Under the pieces are notes generated by a model. That model had not been told where the DNA came from and ran no database searches. It saw only the letters and a list, made by a program, of their open reading frames with translations. A program made the position numbers and the translations under genes. Shown here piece by piece: positions 14,852-50,743 of a stretch of DNA of 58,334 bases. The DNA is from Candidatus Woesearchaeota archaeon (GTDB taxonomy: Archaea; Nanobdellota; Nanobdellia; Woesearchaeales; GW2011-AR15): positions 6,430 to 64,763 of the forward strand of contig JAVZBY010000005.1 of the NCBI GenBank assembly GCA_038874655.1. Direction: 5' to 3'. The stretch's first letter is position 1. Every line of letters begins with the position of its first letter.

Positions 14852-15112
14852 ATGACAAATAAGATAGCAAAATTAGATATTCTAAAAGCTTTAGCAGATG
14901 AAACAAGATTAAAGATAATTGAAGCATTGAAAGATAAAGAGATGTGCGCTTGTGAATTAGTGCCTTTAGCAAAAAAAAGCCAACCCAATGTTTCTCTACA
15001 TTTAAAAAAACTTGAGGAAAATGGCATATTAAAATCAAGAAAAGAAGGAACAAAAGTTATTTATTCTATAAAAGATAAAAGAGTTTTGAAGATATTAAAT
15101 GCACTTGAATAA
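14852..15112 (+). CDS. ArsR/SmtB-family metalloregulator
   Basis: KALADETRLKII, EMCACEL (alpha3 CxC), SQPNVSLHLKKLEENG. Confidence 0.95.
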   Translation: MTNKIAKLDILKALADETRLKIIEALKDKEMCACELVPLAKKSQPNVSLHLKKLEENGILKSRKEGTKVIYSIKDKRVLKILNALE

Positions 15113-15241
15113 TTTTTTATTTTAATCTTCTTATAAAAAAGATAAATATTTAAATATACAAATATTTATAAAAATAAATATTTAAAAAAACATAAATATT
15201 ATACCTAAATAAAAATTAAAAAATAATAAAAAAGTGAAATT

Positions 15242-16414
15242 ATGATTAAATTTATAAAAAAAGTTAAAGAATTTTTTAATAACAATTGGGTTTTGTTTTT
15301 GTTGTTTTTTTCTTATTTGATTGTTTTTTTAGGCCAAAAACAAATTGGAAGTTTTTTAGCACAAGAAGATATACAAAAAATAATTGGTCAAGGAATTTAT
15401 AATGGCTGGCTCTCTCTTGTTGATTATTTGTCTGCTCATGTTTTAATGTGCTTAATTCCTGCTTTTTTTATTGCTGGTGCAATAAACAGCTTAATTGGCA
15501 CAAATACTATTCTAAAATATTTAAGTGGAAAAACAAAAAAACACCTTGCCTATATAATTGCTGGAGTTGGCGGTTTTTTCTTAGAAGTTTGTTCCTGTAC
15601 AATTTTACCTTTGTTTGCAGGAATCTGGAAAAAAGGTGCTGGTTTAGGAATTGCTGTTACTTTGCTTTATGCAGGGCCCTCTAATAATGTTGTTACTTTG
15701 ATGATGACAGGTCAAAGAATAGGTTGGCAATTTGCCTTTTTCAGATTATTGTTTTCAATAAGCTTTGCTATTTTAATTGGCTTAATAATGGACTTTCTTT
15801 TTAGAAATGAAAAGCACGAAAAAACAGATTTAATTATTTCTGAATCAAAATTGTCTCTAAAAGGCATTAAATCTAAAATTTTTTGGGTTTTGCTTTTTAG
15901 CATTTTAATTATAGGAACTGCTCCAATTCCAAATAATATAAAAACATATTCTGTTTTAGGATTGACTTTATTTGAAATAATATTAGCTTTTAAATGGCTT
16001 ACAAGAGAAGAAAGAAATGCTTGGTGGCAAGAAACAATAAAGTTTACCTCAGATATAATCCCTTTGTTATTATTTGGTGTTTTTTTGGCAGGAATGTTTA
16101 CTCATTTTATTCCAAAAGAGGAATTTCAAAAAATTGCAGGACAAAATACAATTACATCAAATTTAATTGCTGTTGCTTTTGGTGCAATTGCTTATTTTCC
16201 TGCATTAGTGGAAGTTCCTATTGCAGAAAATTTTATGAAGCTAGGAATGAATAAAGGGCCATTAATGGCTTATATGCTTGCTGATCCTGTATTGTCATTG
16301 CAAGGGCTATTGATAATTTCAAAAATGATTGGAAAAAAGAAAACTTTTATTTACTTAATGCTAATTGTAATTTTAACAACAAGTGCTGGATATTTATATG
16401 GTTTATTTGGCTGA
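15242..16414 (+). CDS. ArsP/DUF318-family permease
   Basis: Multi-TM; HVLMCLIPAFFIAGA, LEVCSCTILPLF, YFPALVEVPI; downstream of ArsR. Confidence 0.9.
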   Translation: MIKFIKKVKEFFNNNWVLFLLFFSYLIVFLGQKQIGSFLAQEDIQKIIGQGIYNGWLSLVDYLSAHVLMCLIPAFFIAGAINSLIGTNTILKYLSGKTKKHLAYIIAGVGGFFLEVCSCTILPLFAGIWKKGAGLGIAVTLLYAGPSNNVVTLMMTGQRIGWQFAFFRLLFSISFAILIGLIMDFLFRNEKHEKTDLIISESKLSLKGIKSKIFWVLLFSILIIGTAPIPNNIKTYSVLGLTLFEIILAFKWLTREERNAWWQETIKFTSDIIPLLLFGVFLAGMFTHFIPKEEFQKIAGQNTITSNLIAVAFGAIAYFPALVEVPIAENFMKLGMNKGPLMAYMLADPVLSLQGLLIISKMIGKKKTFIYLMLIVILTTSAGYLYGLFG

Positions 16415-16419
16415 TAAAA

Positions 16420-17658
16420 ATGGGTTTAATAAAATCAATTAAAGAATTTTTATCTGAAAAATTTAATTTGTATTTAGTTTTATTTTTAATTTTATTAGGC
16501 ACAATTGCTTATTTTAAAGATTTTGATTTATCTAAAAAATCTGTTTCAGAAGAAATTGAAATTCATTTTTTTTATTTACCAACATGTCCTCATTGCAATG
16601 AACAAAAACCCATTTATTATGCAATAAAAGAAGAGTTTAATCAATTAGAGAACAAAAATATAAAATTTTTTGAGCATGATGCATCTACTTCAGAAGGAAG
16701 TTCTTTATTTTATAAAATGGCTTCTGAGGCAGGTTTAGATACAAAAAGATTAGCTGTTCCTACGATTTTTGTAAACAATAGGTTTGGAAAAAATGCTTTG
16801 ATTGGTGTTCAGTCAAAAGAGAATTTATTAAATGCAATAAACCAATGTGTAAATCAATGCAAAAATGAGCAATATCAAAATAAGCCAAGCCAGAATTTAA
16901 CAGATGAAAATTCAATAAAAAATTTTGATCTGCCTTTTTTAGGAAAAACAGACTTAACGAAATATAGTTTATTAAGCCTTTCAATAATTTTAGGATTAAT
17001 TGATGGTTTTAATCCTTGTGCGATGTGGGTTCTAGTTTATTTAATTGGGATTTTAATTGGCTTAAATGATAAAAAGAAGATTTGGATTATTGTTGGAAGT
17101 TTTGTTTTTGCTTCTGGTGTTTTATATTTCTTATTTATGACTGCATGGCTCAATGTTTTTTTGCTTTTAGGATATATGAAATTAATTACAATAATTATTG
17201 GAATGATTGCATTAGGTGGAGGTATTTTAAGTTTAAAAGAATATATTACAACAAAAGGAGAATTAGTTTGTAAAGTTGGTGATGTTAATGATCATAAAAA
17301 AACAATGAAAAAAATAGATAAAATCGCTTTACAGCCTATAACTATTGGAGTAGTTATCTCAATTATAGGTTTGGCTTTTGTTGTTAATTCTGTTGAATTT
17401 ATGTGCTCTGCTGCAATTCCTGCTGTTTTTACACAAATTTTGGCTTTAAGCAATATCTCAACTTTAATGAATTATTTGTATATAGCAATTTACACATTTT
17501 TCTTTATGTTAGATGATTTAGTAGTTTTTGGAATGGCTGCTTTTGCTGTAAACAATAGTTTTGGAGATAAATATGCTAAATATTGCAAATTAATTGGTGG
17601 AATTATCATGACTGTTTTGGGTTTTATTTTATTATTTGCACCACAATTATTAAGATAA
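16420..17658 (+). CDS. Thioredoxin (CPHC) domain fused to CcdA/DsbD-like transmembrane domain
   Basis: FFYLPTCPHC; TM domain DGFNPCAMWVL...VEFMCSAAIP with two membrane Cys. Confidence 0.85.
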   Translation: MGLIKSIKEFLSEKFNLYLVLFLILLGTIAYFKDFDLSKKSVSEEIEIHFFYLPTCPHCNEQKPIYYAIKEEFNQLENKNIKFFEHDASTSEGSSLFYKMASEAGLDTKRLAVPTIFVNNRFGKNALIGVQSKENLLNAINQCVNQCKNEQYQNKPSQNLTDENSIKNFDLPFLGKTDLTKYSLLSLSIILGLIDGFNPCAMWVLVYLIGILIGLNDKKKIWIIVGSFVFASGVLYFLFMTAWLNVFLLLGYMKLITIIIGMIALGGGILSLKEYITTKGELVCKVGDVNDHKKTMKKIDKIALQPITIGVVISIIGLAFVVNSVEFMCSAAIPAVFTQILALSNISTLMNYLYIAIYTFFFMLDDLVVFGMAAFAVNNSFGDKYAKYCKLIGGIIMTVLGFILLFAPQLLR

Positions 17659-17705
17659 TTTTAAAATTAAAATAACAAAAAATTAATTAGAATTTGGGTG
17701 AAAAC

Positions 17706-17939
17706 ATGAACATAAAAGTTATAGGAAGCGGTTGCCCTACTTGTAAAAAGTTGTATGAAAAAGTTAAAAAAATTAATGAAGAAAAAAAATTAGGGGCTGA
17801 AATTGAATATATAACGGACTTCAATGAGTTGATAAAAAGAGGAATAATGGGAAGTCCTGCTTTATTAATAAATGAAAAGGTTGTTTGTGTAGGTATGCCT
17901 AGTGATGAAAAACTTAATAAATTATTAAATAATTCTTAA
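17706..17939 (+). CDS. Small redox-active disulfide protein (MTH895/thioredoxin-like)
   Basis: IKVIGSGCPTCKKL...GIMGSPALLINEKVV; GGGTGA SD before ATG 17706. Confidence 0.9.
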   Translation: MNIKVIGSGCPTCKKLYEKVKKINEEKKLGAEIEYITDFNELIKRGIMGSPALLINEKVVCVGMPSDEKLNKLLNNS

Positions 17940-17980: not shown

Positions 17981-18031
17981 GGCAATGAAGTCTGCCTTCC
18001 TTATGGAAAACTGCTTCAGCTGATGACTTCT
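17981..18031 (+). ncRNA. Fluoride riboswitch (crcB motif)
   Basis: GGCAATGAAGTCTGCC...AACTGCTTCAGCTGATGACTTCT: P1 GGCA/TGCC, pseudoknot GAAGTC/GACTTC, conserved GCTGATGAC; extra hairpin TTCC-TTAT-GGAA; GC island in an AT-rich 5' leader. Confidence 0.92.
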
Positions 18032-18087
18032 TATATGAAAAAATTGAATTAAAAAGGATTGTAAATAAAAAACCAGTATAAAATAAA

Positions 18088-18303
18088 ATGGAAAATCCAA
18101 TAACCTTTCCTTTTATGATATTTGCTGGAATAATTGTTTTTATGTTTGTTTTTTTAGAGACGTATAGACATTTTCCTAAAATGGAAAAACAAAAAAGAAT
18201 TGAATATTCATTAAGTATAGCAATAATAATGGCTTTGGCAATAATGGCTATCTTATATTTTGCTTTAAATTATTTTATGGCGATTATATTAAATAGCAAA
18301 TAA
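18088..18303 (+). CDS. 71-aa two-TM membrane protein, first gene after fluoride riboswitch
   Basis: Two hydrophobic helices flanking ETYRHFPKMEKQKR. Confidence 0.75.
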   Translation: MENPITFPFMIFAGIIVFMFVFLETYRHFPKMEKQKRIEYSLSIAIIMALAIMAILYFALNYFMAIILNSK

Positions 18304-18346
18304 AAAAATTTCAATATTAATAATAAAATATACATAATCAAAAAAA

Positions 18347-18775
18347 ATGAATAAAAAAGCAAAACAAAAAAATGATCTTGAAAGAGAGTATTTATTAGAT
18401 TTTTTAATGAAAAGCAATAGCCTAAAAGAATTGTTAGAAATTTTGTCAAATATATGCAAAAATTTAGATTTAAGTTATTTAAATCCTAAGTTAAAGCATT
18501 TTAGATATTTTCAGTTTACTTTTTTCGGCTTAATGGCAAAATCAAAAACCTTGATTGAGCTTATGATATATAGAGCAGATTTTTTAAAAAATAAAATAGA
18601 TGAATTTAACGAAATTTATTTTGAATTAATAAAATTAAAAGATGAGATAGAGAATGCATTTGCATTAATTAAAAAAAATAAAATGATTGAAGGAAAAAAT
18701 AAAATTGTTGAATTGAATAAAAAATATAGTCTATTATTTGAAAATATAAGTCTTAAAATTAAGATTTTAATTTAA
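18347..18775 (+). CDS. Hypothetical helical protein
   Basis: 142-aa ORF co-oriented with neighbours, short gaps; no motif recognised. Confidence 0.6.
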   Translation: MNKKAKQKNDLEREYLLDFLMKSNSLKELLEILSNICKNLDLSYLNPKLKHFRYFQFTFFGLMAKSKTLIELMIYRADFLKNKIDEFNEIYFELIKLKDEIENAFALIKKNKMIEGKNKIVELNKKYSLLFENISLKIKILI

Positions 18776-18797
18776 ATTAATTAAAAAATTTAGAAAA

Positions 18798-20000
18798 ATG
18801 GCTAAAAAAAAAGGATGGCTTAATAGAAATGTGTTTTTGTTTGGATTAGCTAGTTTATTTAGTGATATGAGCCATGAAATGGCTACAGCTATATTGCCAA
18901 TTTTTTTATCAGTTGAATTAAAAAGCGCTGCTGCAATTCTTGGTATAATTGAAGGAATATCTGATTTTTCTTCCAGTTTCATAAAAACTTTTGCAGGCTG
19001 GTTTAGTGATAAGTTAGGAAAAAGAAAGCCTTTTGTTATTATTGGCTATATTATGACTGGTTTCTTTATTCCCTTGATAGGATTTGCAACACATTGGGTT
19101 CATGTTTTAATTGCAAGAACATTTGGCTGGATAGGAAAAGGTATGAGAAGCCCTGCAAGAGATGCTTTATTAACTGAGTCTGTTGATAAAGAAACAAGAA
19201 GTAAGTCATTTGGTTTTGAAAGAATGATGGACATGTTAGGCGCAATTTTAGGCCCTGGAATTGCTTTTCTTATGCTGACATTAATAGGAATAAGAAATGT
19301 TTTTTTCCTTTCTTTTATTCCTGGTTTGTTTTCAATTTTTTCAGTAGTCTTCGTAAAAGAGAAATATATTAAAAAAAATAATAAAATTGATTTTTTGAAA
19401 ACTTTAAAAAATATGCCAGTTGAGTTTAAAAAATTTTTAATTGCTGCTTTTGTTTTTGGAATTGGAAATTTTGCAAACACTTTTTTAGTTTTAAGAGTCA
19501 TGGAAGCATTAAAACCTAATCTTGGAATTATAGTTGCTGGCAGCATTTCAACAGGACTTTATGTTTTTCTAAATTTCGGAGCTGCAATTTTTGCTTATGT
19601 GTTTGGAAATTTAGGTGATATCCTTGATAAAAAATTATTATTAGGATTAGGTTATTTAATATTTGCAATTTATTGCTTAGGATTTGTTTTTTTACCATCT
19701 ACATTAATTAGTTTTTTAATATTATTTTTGTTAGCAGGAGTAGAAACAGGGCTTATAGATGTAATGGAAAGAGCTTATGCTGCAGATTTATTAACAAAAA
19801 ATATAAGAGGAACTGGTTTTGGATTATTAAATACAATAAATGGAATAGGTGATTTTGTATCAAGTATAATTGCTGGATTTTTATGGACACTATTATCTTA
19901 TAAAGGTTCATTTATTTATGGAGCAATCTTTTCTATTTTAGCAACAATAATTTTATTTTTAAATAAAAAAAATTCTGTAAAAGGAATGAAAAATGTCTAA
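18798..20000 (+). CDS. MFS transporter
   Basis: About 12 TM; motif A GWFSDKLGKRK; GLASLFSDMSHEM; second-half GNLGDILDKK. Confidence 0.95.
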   Translation: MAKKKGWLNRNVFLFGLASLFSDMSHEMATAILPIFLSVELKSAAAILGIIEGISDFSSSFIKTFAGWFSDKLGKRKPFVIIGYIMTGFFIPLIGFATHWVHVLIARTFGWIGKGMRSPARDALLTESVDKETRSKSFGFERMMDMLGAILGPGIAFLMLTLIGIRNVFFLSFIPGLFSIFSVVFVKEKYIKKNNKIDFLKTLKNMPVEFKKFLIAAFVFGIGNFANTFLVLRVMEALKPNLGIIVAGSISTGLYVFLNFGAAIFAYVFGNLGDILDKKLLLGLGYLIFAIYCLGFVFLPSTLISFLILFLLAGVETGLIDVMERAYAADLLTKNIRGTGFGLLNTINGIGDFVSSIIAGFLWTLLSYKGSFIYGAIFSILATIILFLNKKNSVKGMKNV

Positions 20001-21042
20001 GAGATATTCTCAAGATATAACATTTGATTTAGTAAAAAAGAATGAAAAAAGCATTTATTTAGGCAAGATAGCAGAATCTGGAATTTTTAAAGAAAAAGAT
20101 TTTTATTTTAATATTGATGAATTTACAAAACATGCATTTATTGCTGGTTCAACTGGTGGTGGAAAAACAATTACAGCACAAATTATTGCAGAAGAAGCTT
20201 TTTCAAAAGGCATTTCCATTTTAGTTATTGACCCTACAGCACAATGGACAGGATTTATAAAAAAATTAGATGATAATATGTTATTTAAAAGATACAGATA
20301 TTTTGATATGAAAAAAGAAAAGGCTAAAAGTTATCCAACAAATATAATAAAATTAAAAAAAGATTCTAAATTTTGTGAAAATAATTTTTTTGAAGAAAAT
20401 TCAATAAATGTTCTTATAGCTAATGACTTAACAGAAAAAGAGATAGATGAAAAAATAACAGAATTAATCGATTTGTTTTTTAAAAAAACACCTGAAGAAA
20501 GCCAAGAGCTTAAATTGTTATTGTTTTTTGAAGAAGTTCATAGAATTTTGCCTAAGTATGGTGGCTCTGGAAACGGTTTGATTGCTTTAGAGAGAGCTGT
20601 TAGGGAGTTTAGAAAATGGGGTATTGGAATTATTTTAATTAGCCAGATTTTAGAAGATTTTGTTGGTGAAATTAGAGCAAATATTGGAACAGAATTCCAG
20701 CATAGAACTGTGTATGAAGTTGATCTTGAAAAGATTAAATTAAAATATGGTGATGAAATTGTAAAAGCTGTTGTTAGATTAGAAACAGGAACCTTAATGT
20801 TTCATAATTCTAGTTTAAATATTGGAAAACCATTGTTTATTAAAATTAAACCTCCATTGCATAATGTCAATAGGTTAAATGATACTGAATTAAAGGAATA
20901 TCTTAAGATTAAAGAGATTATTATGATGATTGAAAAATCTGAAAAATTAAAAAATTTTGAAAAATTAAAACTTGCTAAAAATGAACTTATAAAAGGTAAT
21001 TTTCAGATTGCTGAAAAATATTTAAAAGAATTGAATATCTAA
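19993..21042 (+). CDS. HerA/FtsK-superfamily (DUF87-like) ATPase
   Basis: HAFIAGSTGGGKT (Walker A), VIDP, LLFFEEVH (Walker B), REFRKWGIGIILISQ; overlaps MFS by 8 nt. Confidence 0.88.
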   Translation: MSKRYSQDITFDLVKKNEKSIYLGKIAESGIFKEKDFYFNIDEFTKHAFIAGSTGGGKTITAQIIAEEAFSKGISILVIDPTAQWTGFIKKLDDNMLFKRYRYFDMKKEKAKSYPTNIIKLKKDSKFCENNFFEENSINVLIANDLTEKEIDEKITELIDLFFKKTPEESQELKLLLFFEEVHRILPKYGGSGNGLIALERAVREFRKWGIGIILISQILEDFVGEIRANIGTEFQHRTVYEVDLEKIKLKYGDEIVKAVVRLETGTLMFHNSSLNIGKPLFIKIKPPLHNVNRLNDTELKEYLKIKEIIMMIEKSEKLKNFEKLKLAKNELIKGNFQIAEKYLKELNI

Positions 21043-21044
21043 AA

Positions 21045-21332
21045 ATGATATTAGAAAGTGAAAAGATAAAAAATTTTATATTAAGCAATAAACAAAAAGA
21101 TGGCGGCTTTAGTTTCACAAAAGAAAGCTCTCCTTGTTTTATAGAACAAATATATTTAGCAAGTGAAGCACTATGTGAATTAAAATCCAAACCAAAAGAT
21201 ATTAATAATTATGTAAAATTAATCCAATCTTTTAAAGCTAATAATGATGCTATGAAAGACAAATTTCTACTGTTCCAACTTTGGAATCAACCTATTGCTG
21301 TTTTTTGTTTGATTAGATTAAGTCAAAAATAG
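21045..21332 (+). pseudogene. Prenyltransferase/squalene-cyclase-repeat gene fragment, probably frameshifted
   Basis: FILSNKQKDGGFS repeat; second repeat continues in another frame from 21251 (YERQISTVPTLESTYCC). Confidence 0.6.
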
Positions 21333-21371
21333 GATAAGAAATTTTTTAGTATTAATTAAATAATATAAAAA

Positions 21372-23921
21372 TTACATATAACCATATTTTTTAACAAACC
21401 ATTTTTTAACAAATTGAACTATAATTAAATAAGATGAAACTATTAAAAATAATGCAATAAAATAAGTTGGTGGAGGAATAACAAATCCAAAATATTTATC
21501 TAAAGGTGAAAAAGGAATGATTAATGCTGAACAAATTATTATTAAGGAAGTTAAAATTAAAAATTTGCTTGGCTTGCTTTCAATAAAAGGGATTTTTTCT
21601 GTTCTTATAACATGGATTACCAACGTTTGAGTTATTATGGACTCCCAAAACCAACCTGTATGAAAAATTTCCTCCGGTGCTTGAAATATAAATAATAAAA
21701 CACCAAAGGTTATAAAATCAAATACTGAACTTATTGGGCCAAATACTAACATAAATCTTTTTATTCCATTGATATCCCAAGGTCTTGATTTTTTTAAATA
21801 TTCCTCATCAACATTATCAGTTGGGATTGCTACTTGTGATAAGTCATATAAAAAATTGTTTAATAATATCTGCAAAGGAGCCATTGGTAAAAATGGTAAA
21901 AATAAAGAAGCGCCTGTTAAACTGAACATGTTGCCAAAATTTGAACTAGATCCCATTTTTATGTATTTTATAATATTTCCAAAGGTTTTTCTACCTTCTT
22001 TGACGCCATCTGCTAAAACTCTTAAACTTTTTTTTAATAAAATTATATCTGCAGATTCTTTTGCAATATCAGCTGCATTATTTACAGAAATGCCTACATC
22101 TGCTGCTTTTAAAGAGGGTGCATCATTAATACCATCACCTAAATAACCGACAACATGATCTTGTTTCAAAAGTTTAATAATCCTTTGTTTTTGAATTGGA
22201 TTTAATCTTGCATAAACATTTACATTTTTTGCTAAATTCTTTAAATCATCATCACTTAAACCGTCTATTTGTTCACCTGTTAAAATCAATTCAGTGTTAA
22301 TACCAACATCAGAACAAATTTTTTTTGAAACTAATTCATTGTCACCTGTTAAAACTATTATTCTTATGCCCAATTCTTGTAAATCTTTTATTGTTTTTTT
22401 TGCTGTTGGCTTTGGAGGATCTAAAAATGCTGTAAAACCTAATAAAATTAAATCGTCTTCATCTTCTTTTGAATAAGATTTTTGCGTTTTTTCAAAGTTT
22501 TTATATGCAATTGCTAATACTCTAAAACCTTGTTTACTTAATTCTAGATTTTGATTTACTATTTTTTCTTTTATTTTTTTGTCAATTTTTTTTATTTTTC
22601 CATTTAATTCGTATTTAGTACATTTAGGTAAAATTGATTCTGGAGCACCTTTAGAAATTAGTTTATGATTATTTTCCATATCTATAATAACAGACATAAT
22701 TCTTCTTGAAAAATCAAACGGAATCTCATCAACTTTCTCATAGTTTTGTACATGCAAAACTTGATGTTTTAATATTGCTTTATCTAACAAATTTCTTAAA
22801 CTTGTTTGATAATAACTATTTATATAAGCTAATTTTAGAACATCTTCATTTTCTTTTCCTTCAATATCAATATGTTTTTCTAGAATTACTTCTCCAAGAG
22901 TGATTGTGCCTGTTTTGTCTGTGCAAAGTATATCCATAGCACCTAAGTTTTGTATGGCATTTAATCTTTTTACAATAACTTGTTTTTTTGACATAGAGAT
23001 TGCGCCTTTACTTAAATTTACAGTTACTAACATTGGCAACATCTCTGGTGTTAAACCTACTGCAACTGCTAATGAAAATAATAATGCTTCTAAGATGTGC
23101 CTTTTTATTAATGCATTAATTAAAAATATTACTAAAACAAGAATAATTGTAAATTTAATCATTAACCACATGTAAGATTTTATGCCTTTTTCAAAACTAG
23201 ATTCATATTCACCAGCTTCCGAAATCTGTTTTGAGAGTTCCCCAAATTTTGTATATGACCCTGTTTTTATTACTATTCCTGTAGCTGAGCCAGAATCTAC
23301 AGATGTACCCATAAACGCAATGTTTTTCAGCTCTTCTATAGTATCGTTTTTTGGATCAATTGAATCAGAAATTTTTTCAACAGGAAAACTTTCACCTGTT
23401 AAAACAGCTCTATTAATAAAAAAATCTTTTGTTGTTATCAATCTAATATCTGCTGGAATTATATCCCCTGATGAAAGAAAAACAATGTCTCCTGGAACTA
23501 ATTCTTTTATAGGAATTTCTTTTTTTTCTTTGTTTCTATAGACTGTTGCAGTGGATTTAACCAGTTCTATTAATTTTTCTGCTTCTTTTCCTGATTTAAC
23601 TTCCTGTATAAAATCTAAAATAACACTAACTAAAATCATAATTGAAACCATTACTGAGCTAATTACATTTTCAAAAAAATAACTAATAATTGCAATAATC
23701 AATAAAATTAAAATTAAAGGATTTAGAAATTTTAAAAAAAATTTTATTATTAGATTGTGTTTTTTTGGTTTTTCAGGTTGATTATAGCCAAAAAAAGATA
23801 ATCTTTTTTTTGCTTCTTTTTCACTTAAACCTAAGGATTCTGTTTCATATTCTTTAAATAATGTGGAAACATTAGATTTAGCAATTTCTATATAAGATTT
23901 TTTTAAAATATTTTTATCCAC
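21372..23921 (-). CDS. mgtA: Magnesium-translocating P-type ATPase (P3B)
   Basis: VGLTPEMLP, DKTGT, GDGINDAPSL, SSNFGNMFS, NNFLYD; GTG start. Confidence 0.93.
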   Translation of the reverse strand: MDKNILKKSYIEIAKSNVSTLFKEYETESLGLSEKEAKKRLSFFGYNQPEKPKKHNLIIKFFLKFLNPLILILLIIAIISYFFENVISSVMVSIMILVSVILDFIQEVKSGKEAEKLIELVKSTATVYRNKEKKEIPIKELVPGDIVFLSSGDIIPADIRLITTKDFFINRAVLTGESFPVEKISDSIDPKNDTIEELKNIAFMGTSVDSGSATGIVIKTGSYTKFGELSKQISEAGEYESSFEKGIKSYMWLMIKFTIILVLVIFLINALIKRHILEALLFSLAVAVGLTPEMLPMLVTVNLSKGAISMSKKQVIVKRLNAIQNLGAMDILCTDKTGTITLGEVILEKHIDIEGKENEDVLKLAYINSYYQTSLRNLLDKAILKHQVLHVQNYEKVDEIPFDFSRRIMSVIIDMENNHKLISKGAPESILPKCTKYELNGKIKKIDKKIKEKIVNQNLELSKQGFRVLAIAYKNFEKTQKSYSKEDEDDLILLGFTAFLDPPKPTAKKTIKDLQELGIRIIVLTGDNELVSKKICSDVGINTELILTGEQIDGLSDDDLKNLAKNVNVYARLNPIQKQRIIKLLKQDHVVGYLGDGINDAPSLKAADVGISVNNAADIAKESADIILLKKSLRVLADGVKEGRKTFGNIIKYIKMGSSSNFGNMFSLTGASLFLPFLPMAPLQILLNNFLYDLSQVAIPTDNVDEEYLKKSRPWDINGIKRFMLVFGPISSVFDFITFGVLLFIFQAPEEIFHTGWFWESIITQTLVIHVIRTEKIPFIESKPSKFLILTSLIIICSALIIPFSPLDKYFGFVIPPPTYFIALFLIVSSYLIIVQFVKKWFVKKYGYM

Positions 23922-45910: not shown

Positions 45911-46000
45911 AGCCCCTGGGGAGACTTGAACTCCCGACTTGCAGTTTTTTTGCTTAAAAAGAGATACGAAACTGCCACTCTACCACTGAGTTACAGGGGC
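45911..46000 (-). tRNA. tRNA-Thr(CGT) with 18-nt intron at 37/38 (45947-45964)
   Basis: GCCCCTG/CAGGGGC acceptor, ACTC/GAGT D-stem, GCAGT/ACTGC anticodon stem, GGGAG-TTCAAGT-CTCCC T-arm, U discriminator, CCA not encoded. Confidence 0.95.
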
Positions 46001-50610: not shown

Positions 50611-50743
50611 GGGGACATAGTACAACCTGGCTAGTATAGGCGGCTCCAGTCATGGAGCGATGAGCTGAAAAGCAATGAATTATTGGCGGTAAGTCAATCG
50701 AGGAAGTTACCGCCGGATCAGGGTTCAAATCCCTGTGTCCCCA
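50611..50743 (+). tRNA. tRNA-Trp(CCA) with 59-nt intron at 37/38 (50650-50708)
   Basis: GGGGACA/TGTCCCC acceptor, GGCGG/CCGCC anticodon stem, CT-CCA-G loop, CAGGG-TTCAAAT-CCCTG T-arm, A discriminator. Confidence 0.95.
50650..50708 (+). ncRNA. Intron-encoded, degenerate box C/D-type guide RNA
   Basis: TGGAGC complementary to anticodon region GCTCCA; GGCGGT complementary to ACCGCC; k-turn-like ATGA-GCT-GAAA-AGC-AATGAAT. Confidence 0.7.

Follow-up and report, generated by a model that had tools for sequence, protein, structure and literature searches.

A fluoride riboswitch and a five-gene array in a woesearchaeal genome

The DNA analysed here, referred to as the window, is a stretch of 58,334 nucleotides (nt) from a Candidatus Woesearchaeota archaeon (GenBank assembly GCA_038874655.1, contig JAVZBY010000005.1, positions 6,430 to 64,763 of the forward strand), a placement with which the public names of the closest homologues agree. 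Our subject is a fluoride riboswitch aptamer in this stretch and the genes that follow it, in particular the first of them, which encodes a 71-amino-acid membrane protein that we call c0. A cmscan of the whole window against Rfam returned three matches above the Rfam gathering scores: two intron-bearing tRNAs and the fluoride riboswitch (RF01734; 17972-18039, + strand), which scored 35.3 bits (E = 4.3e-6 for the window) against a gathering score of 34. A covariance-model search showed that this RF01734 match is unique within the whole genome assembly (G000; 1,263,075 bases, 17 contigs, 97.3% complete).

According to the list of open reading frames (ORFs), five co-oriented genes stand behind the aptamer, and a convergent gene for an 849-amino-acid protein comes after them. 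The first, c0 (18088-18303, +), encodes a protein with two membrane helices that falls into no Pfam or NCBIfam family. No such family was found either for the second, c6 (18347-18775, +), whose 142-amino-acid product is predicted to be soluble. An AlphaFold-type model of c6 is a four-helix bundle (pLDDT 89.5), for which a Foldseek search of the PDB returned just generic or designed helical bundles (best E = 0.015). The c6 family comprises 110 clusters, all of them unnamed or 'hypothetical' save P0149, which bears the JGI name IscX/YfhJ regulator. The third gene, c1 (18798-20000, +), encodes a 400-amino-acid transporter of the major facilitator superfamily (MFS); it matched MFS_1 (PF07690) in two stretches with 150.8 bits, against a cut-off of 33.4, and no NCBIfam model at that model's own cut-off.

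The fourth gene, c31 (19993-21042, +), begins within the MFS gene, with an overlap of 8 nt. Its 349-amino-acid product is a P-loop ATPase of the HerA/FtsK kind, in which the HerA_C (48.6 bits) and DUF87 (36 bits) domains exceed their Pfam cut-offs. Assignment of c31 as a HerA orthologue was rejected because the equivalog cut-offs were missed, the NCBIfam HerA and CedD models scoring 17-55 bits against cut-offs of 600-970. The fifth gene, c16 (21045-21332, +), is an ORF of 95 amino acids with no Pfam match. It clusters by BLASTP with the c16 proteins of other loci and weakly matches (E = 0.003) a 318-amino-acid protein of locus L005 that carries PF00432. It is too short for a whole toroid and is probably the remnant of a prenyltransferase-type alpha/alpha-toroid protein. 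The ORF list and the Pfam matches thus agree with an earlier note, made from these letters without database searches, which had described the co-oriented array and the 8-nt overlap between the MFS and ATPase genes.

The aptamer lies in the 5′ leader of these co-oriented, fluoride-tied genes, and 48 nt separate its end from the start codon of c0. Elsewhere, related aptamers stand before crcB, before enolase and before a Na+/H+ antiporter-like gene. T-runs are too frequent in the AT-rich DNA of the window to be informative; the first intergenic T-run past the aptamer is found at 21342, after the fifth gene, and the 43- and 22-nt spacers contain none, a placement compatible with one transcription unit.

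The aptamer belongs to a covarying archaeal set

The window aptamer is an archaeal variant of the fluoride class, in which a small extra hairpin stands between P1 and the linker. Its second stem was aligned as 2 base pairs and a 4-nt loop, and its pseudoknot carries compensatory G-to-A and C-to-U changes, which give A-U where G-C is expected. Three features lower its score: the A-U pairs of the pseudoknot, the great shortness of the second stem and the inserted hairpin. The first two are shared by a 43-bit aptamer from the window's order (locus L002, genome G022). The earlier note had spoken of a near-consensus aptamer; the aptamer stands, with its score and its covariation (see below), while the term 'near-consensus' does not fit an RNA with a margin of 1.3 bits, a short second stem and an altered pseudoknot.

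We assembled the 42 RF01734 matches present over all fetched loci and dropped 13 with identical first 60 nt, which left 29 distinct aptamers. Their alignment was scored against a hand-written structure that consists of P1, a six-pair pseudoknot, the optional inserted hairpin and the second stem. Standard pairs occupied 94.3% of the cells, as compared with 82.4% in shuffles, and changes on both sides were seen in 13 of the 18 scored pairs. For four of five measures, none of 500 shuffles reached the observed values. As a control, partners were slid by 1-3 columns, upon which pairing fell to 30-58%. Both-side changes affected four of the six pseudoknot pairs; at one of them U-A was found in 15 rows and C-G in 14, and at the next, U-A in 16 and C-G in 9. 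The window row is compatible with P1, the pseudoknot and 2 base pairs of the second stem. The covariance model, proposed earlier as a check on the RNA, recognizes it, and the RNA belongs to a set of 29 distinct aptamers in which P1, the second stem and the pseudoknot are kept by compensatory changes. These results identify the window aptamer as a genuine, lineage-typical fluoride riboswitch, predicted from its sequence to bind fluoride.

Two further features of the aptamer set were observed. The extra hairpin between P1 and the conserved linker is present in 20 of the 29 distinct aptamers (alignment A7, columns 20-36), with compensatory changes in all four scored pairs, yet just 79% pairing. 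The aptamer of genome G173 (L040, 1727-1790, - strand; 26.4 bits) seemingly lacks the second stem-loop and could be either a minimal variant or a decaying switch.

c0 stays with fluoride riboswitches in distant archaea

Pattern scans and whole-genome searches revealed c0 in six genomes: the window genome, its congener G001, G041 (locus L005), G042 (L006), and G173 and G316, both from the window's order. Each of the six contains exactly one RF01734 match, which is located directly upstream of c0 or its operon. In G041, for instance, the riboswitch heads the operon that contains c0. In G001, a 23.9-bit aptamer is followed by a 69-amino-acid c0 homologue and then by an RNase HII-like gene, with no MFS gene there. 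In G173, a thioredoxin-like gene comes next after c0. c0 is accordingly the sole module gene behind the one riboswitch of G001 and of G173, and the unit of G316 comprises the riboswitch, c0 and c6 and nothing more. Of 40 relatives of the window genome, two have an RF01734 match, G001 and G022.

In addition, 28 metagenome loci were fetched with one motif pattern, taken from an 8-row alignment. A same-strand riboswitch was found upstream of c0 in 21 of them, one at 30.7 bits, and these 21 reduce to 15 distinct upstream aptamers. All 20 loci having at least 640 nt of upstream sequence possess the riboswitch, and each of the seven loci without it has at most 459 nt upstream. In four of these seven, c0 is preceded by genes that elsewhere separate c0 from the riboswitch, and one of the seven shows a partial match.

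Because c0 is very rare otherwise, a chance adjacency of c0 and riboswitch is implausible. Judged by gene order, it is c0 that accompanies the riboswitch from one distant archaeon to the next and that makes up the module's conserved core. This conserved linkage contradicts a scenario under which the original regulated gene had been deleted and unrelated genes were left behind the aptamer. The earlier note had named that scenario as one that would undo its proposal; the recurrence that it had proposed as a check, of homologues of the 71-amino-acid protein and of the MFS protein behind fluoride riboswitches, is observed.

Partner genes recur around c0

We clustered all ORFs of at least 55 amino acids from the loci, leaving out L001 and L003 as duplicates of the window and L004. 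All five genes of the window operon proved to have homologues in other riboswitch-bearing loci, which we call fluoride islands. c6 follows c0 in the window, L009, L029, L032, L033 and L039, and in L007 a c6 homologue is placed behind a divergent riboswitch. In other loci, c0 is separated from the riboswitch by a helical protein of about 140 amino acids, c2, and a 110-amino-acid protein, c3, neither of which falls into a Pfam or NCBIfam family. In L019 this place is taken by another helical protein, of 137 amino acids. Comparison of c6 with c2 by hhalign gave a probability of 22.5% (E = 9e-4). In most loci, a helical protein of about 140 amino acids accompanies c0.

Homologues of c1 were found in 14 clustered loci, and they stand directly behind a riboswitch of their own in L008, L020, L022/L024 and L027/L030/L031. 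In L022/L024, the MFS gene behind the riboswitch is followed, with a 4-nt overlap, by a gene for a HerA-like ATPase. The L022 proteins are 49% (MFS) and 32% (ATPase; E = 1e-60) identical to c1 and c31 of the window. The pairing of an MFS transporter with a HerA-like ATPase, which had been noticed in the window, is therefore repeated directly behind a riboswitch in a distant archaeon. A c1 homologue is encoded elsewhere in the genome in G001, G041 and G042. No match to the window MFS at E ≤ 1e-10 was obtained in G173 or G316, so the MFS protein is not a universal effector.

Full-length c16 proteins are encoded in c0 operons of L005/L014 (318 amino acids, with PF00432) and of L032 (248 amino acids). 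Further genes of the islands encode enolase, dynamin-like GTPases (PF00350, 98.8 bits) and, in L005/L014, a 407-amino-acid Na+/H+ antiporter-like protein, so named by reading its sequence. c0 has a gene for a dynamin-like GTPase as its neighbour, behind a shared or a divergent riboswitch, in L006/L015/L016, L009, L010, L017 and L023/L026. From this gene content, one putative regulon includes c6, the MFS transporter, the HerA-like ATPase and the prenyltransferase-like protein as optional modules.

Three fluoride aptamers lie within about 1 kb in L007 (817-1836) and in L019 (10-1031): one divergent before the c6 homologue, one before the 137-amino-acid helical protein and c0, and one before enolase. 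L012 and L013 are the two ends of one metagenome contig of 840,504 bases, and both carry the c2-c0-MFS region, as would be expected if a small circular genome had been assembled with overlapping ends and broken at the fluoride island. Proteins with a Fic/DOC domain (PF02661, 69 bits) recur near islands (L011, 4780-5673; L030, 2-394; L031, 5083-6027).

c0 is a rare family of small membrane hairpins

A profile of five close homologues of c0 was used to search 1.84 billion proteins. At E ≤ 1e-3 this search yielded 40 representatives, all but three of which are 50-99 amino acids long. In an alignment of 44 members, the residues F22, Y26, H28, F29, P30, M32, R37, S41 and A45 are at least 90% conserved, and the consensus reads FLETYRHFPKMEK..RI..S..NAT. 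The cytoplasmic loop and the helix ends form the most conserved part. The AlphaFold model of c0 is a hairpin (pLDDT 94.2), with a helix at residues 6-28, a loop at 29-33 and a second helix at 34-69. The bias of Lys and Arg residues places the loop on the inside, that is, in the cytoplasm, in 42 of the 44 members. Between the window and its congener, the ratio of nonsynonymous to synonymous substitution rates (dN/dS) of c0 is 0.24. These results, taken together, show that c0 is a real, selected membrane protein. A prediction of a four-copy c0 complex gave a median score of 0.34, against a mark of 0.42 (runs 0.34, 0.00 and 0.59; controls 0.00).

The family was sparse in every sample of genomes. 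c0 was found in three of 401 genomes in the window's phylum and in one of 401 in the phylum of G041; among 31 genomes around G041 only the centre genome had it, and the same was true of 31 genomes around G042. Against PDB sequences, the c0 profile gave chance matches only (E of 0.041 or more). The look-alikes in the ESM Atlas, with scores of up to 0.90, were unnamed small hairpins and included no described relative, so that no sequence relation of c0 to a described family appeared in Pfam, NCBIfam, the PDB or the ESM Atlas. No longer, fused form of c0 was present among 8000 scored candidates, which is weak evidence. By these searches, c0 is a rare, undescribed family of membrane proteins of about 70 amino acids, and the window protein is its putative founding member.

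Tandem c0 paralogues followed by c6 were observed in L029 (163-975) and L033 (362-822); this arrangement would fit a hetero-oligomer.

The operon compared with known fluoride systems

The fluoride riboswitch class is reported to turn expression on with fluoride (PMC11139923; PMC7266159; this and the following statements refer to the available parts of these sources). The 2024 review PMC11139923 names two families of microbial fluoride exporters, Fluc and CLC-F, and describes exporters as the proteins most often encoded behind fluoride riboswitches. The classes it lists are Fluc, CLC-F, Na+/H+ antiporters, pyrophosphatase, HAD phosphatases, enolase, formate hydrogen lyase and chorismate mutase. 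The riboswitch-associated classes of PMC2864571 are mutS, K+ and Cl- transport, and formate hydrogen lyase.

Whole-genome profile searches of the window genome found no CrcB (CRCB, PF02537) and no CLC (Voltage_CLC, PF00654); the two profiles matched 11 and 12, respectively, of 14 control genomes. The absence of Fluc and CLC, claimed initially for the window, thus extends to the whole genome at its 97.3% completeness. No CRCB match was found in any of the six c0 genomes, and a tblastn search with one archaeal CrcB query (E ≤ 10) detected no CrcB in the fetched loci besides L002. c0 itself fails membership of Fluc/CrcB, whose members have four membrane helices in about 120-130 amino acids: it has no Pfam CRCB match, and it is a protein of 71 amino acids with two helices and a fixed topology. 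Fluc, in contrast, has a dual topology in the available part of PMC3755343, whereas the Lys and Arg bias fixes that of c0.

The window operon resembles CrcB operons in that the same aptamer class occupies the 5′ leader of co-oriented genes. In G022, from the same order, a very similar aptamer with a short second stem (L002) precedes a canonical CrcB of 126 amino acids and a partner of 122. The regulated genes of the window, however, include no CrcB and no CLC, and the first of them encodes the two-helix protein of 71 amino acids. A likeness to the fluoride super-regulon is also evident: enolase and the Na+/H+ antiporter-like gene, both of classes listed in the available part of PMC11139923, share islands with c0. 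c0, c6, c2, c3, the MFS transporter, the HerA-like ATPase and the prenyltransferase-like protein, on the other hand, are not named in that part, and the words 'MFS', 'major facilitator', 'dynamin' and 'uncharacterized' have 0 occurrences in PMC11139923. A search of full article texts found no paper that connects fluoride riboswitches to MFS genes, to DPANN archaea or to a c0-like small membrane protein. The riboswitch class is known, and the effector set of the window is outside the classes named in the available parts of PMC11139923 and PMC2864571.

What emerges is a set of archaeal loci that have up to three fluoride riboswitches and neither exporter, and in which recurring unnamed proteins are centred on a membrane hairpin of 70 residues. 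c0 stands out as a strong candidate for a component of fluoride defence not described before. Should it transport fluoride, no smaller fluoride channel would be known, and its way of selecting anions would be of a new design; should it not, it would still point to a part of the fluoride response that is unexplored.

A proposed fluoride-response module and its alternatives

The evidence supports a real regulon whose content is new and in which the microprotein, not the MFS transporter, is the conserved core. With a probability of about 0.7, we propose that a functional fluoride riboswitch heads the five-gene operon and that the operon would serve as a fluoride-response module independent of Fluc and CLC. 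In this proposal, rising cytoplasmic fluoride would cause the aptamer to fold around Mg-F, switching expression on. c0 would be the core effector and would act at the membrane, reducing either the fluoride level in the cytoplasm or the harm that fluoride does. The MFS transporter, energized or regulated by the overlapping ATPase, would be a second candidate exporter, though not a universal one.

Since c0 is the sole module gene behind the only riboswitch in G001 and G173, the most straightforward interpretation is that c0 by itself is of use during fluoride stress. A protein that is useful alone and has two helices suggests an oligomeric pore. Aromatic and hydrogen-bonding residues are conserved at the helix ends on the cytoplasmic side; they would be suited to handling anions and may resemble the chemistry of Fluc. 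Given that the module is real, self-assembly of c0 into a fluoride-conducting pore is the role that we tentatively favour; a small regulatory or stabilizing transporter subunit is a credible contender; a place in a membrane-protection module, with the helical partner and the dynamin-like GTPases, is unlikely; and c0 may do something else in what remains. The subunit and membrane-protection readings are about as plausible as the pore reading. It is possible, with considerable doubt, that c0 represents a third, minimal class of fluoride exporter, a parallel homo-oligomeric pore with the four-helix protein as its cytoplasmic partner. In such an exporter, fluoride would be handled at the cytoplasmic mouth by the conserved Phe, Tyr, His, Arg and Ser residues, and c0 would serve archaea that have neither Fluc nor CLC-F.

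Several points weigh against the proposed module and, in part, against a c0 channel. The window aptamer exceeds the gathering score by just 1.3 bits, and two of the six genomic aptamers, those of G001 (23.9 bits) and G173 (26.4 bits), are below it. No expression platform was recognized, the fold of the window leader being no better than shuffles (z = -0.72), and no terminator-like site was found near that leader. The 28 metagenome loci are not independent, as all were obtained with one motif pattern and many of them stem from a single sample series and are near-duplicates. CrcB was found in just 2 of 40 relatives in the window's order, 2 of 30 around G041 and 5 of 30 around G042. Because CrcB is rare in all three backgrounds, its absence is not evidence of replacement; the earlier argument from a Fluc-less operon keeps its observation and loses its weight. 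Family-level matches to CLC were found in two of the six c0 genomes, G041 and G173, on contigs other than that of the riboswitch. As to c0, helix 2 in the window's clade has neither the Asn nor the Thr of the NAT consensus. The idea that c0 is a 'half-Fluc' was rejected, as hhalign of the 44 c0 members against nine archaeal CrcB proteins gave a probability of 0.2%. With no CrcB homology and a fixed topology, any c0 channel would have to be a new design. Finally, export, whether by c0 or by the MFS protein, is a putative function.

An alternative to a c0 channel is that c0 is a small regulatory or stabilizing subunit that supports the MFS transporter, a cation/proton antiporter or another housekeeping transporter under fluoride stress. 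We consider this rather doubtful, and equally so its corollary that the MFS protein is the real exporter where present. The size of c0, just 71 amino acids with two helices, and a conserved cytoplasmic loop that suits an interaction surface are what such a subunit might be expected to show, and candidate clients are at hand, with MFS genes beside c0 in 14 loci, a Na+/H+ antiporter-like gene beside it in L005/L014, and an MFS gene with its own riboswitch in several loci. The solitary c0 genes behind the only riboswitches of G001 and G173 are nevertheless difficult to accommodate, as are G173 and G316 with their lack of an E ≤ 1e-10 match to the window MFS; no one transporter family accompanies c0 everywhere. 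Among the small membrane proteins known to modulate transporters, AcrZ, KdpF and MgtS each have a single helix. c0 is like them in its comparable size, its membrane location and its encoding beside transporter genes, but it is a hairpin with a conserved loop, and it occurs also without an adjacent transporter gene.

It is improbable that c0, the helical proteins of about 140 amino acids (c6 and c2) and the dynamin-like GTPases form a fluoride-induced module for membrane protection or remodelling, with no transport of fluoride. The dynamin-like genes (PF00350) that adjoin c0 in the five groups of loci given above, from L006/L015/L016 to L023/L026, and the helical protein found with c0 in most loci would agree with this idea. 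However, no dynamin-like gene is beside c0 in the window, G001, G173 or G316, and c6 resembles generic helical bundles only; the available part of PMC11139923 contains no link between fluoride and membrane damage. Very improbable, lastly, is a riboswitch match that arose by chance or has decayed, with fluoride-unrelated genes downstream that use their own promoters: the narrow margin over the cut-off, the unrecognized expression platform and the AT-rich spacers, in which promoters could hide, would allow it, whereas the strong covariation, the joint retention of aptamer and c0 in the congener G001 and in five other genomes, and the homologues of all five downstream genes in other riboswitch-bearing loci contradict it.

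Other features around the operon

Just upstream of the riboswitch (14852-17939, +), the window encodes an ArsR-type regulator, an ArsP_1-type permease, a membrane protein of 412 amino acids with a thioredoxin-like N-terminus, and a thioredoxin of the MTH895/ArsE type. Homologues of the regulator, the thioredoxin and the permease, together with a ferredoxin, are encoded just downstream of c0 in L026, L027 and L030 (3322-5148 in these loci), and in G173 the thioredoxin-like gene after c0 has a membrane protein gene beside it. The adjacency of this ArsR/permease/thioredoxin cluster to the fluoride island is thus recurrent.

The product of the convergent gene at the end of the operon (21372-23921, -) is a magnesium-translocating P-type ATPase (1025 bits to TIGR01524), which may be of interest given that a magnesium complex is the form in which fluoride is sensed and exerts its toxicity. 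The two tRNA genes (45911-46000, -, and 50611-50743, +) have inserts of 20 and 63 nt, respectively, in the anticodon-loop region, which are probably archaeal tRNA introns. The sequencing runs listed for the stretch are three DNA runs of one study, labelled as a hot springs metagenome.

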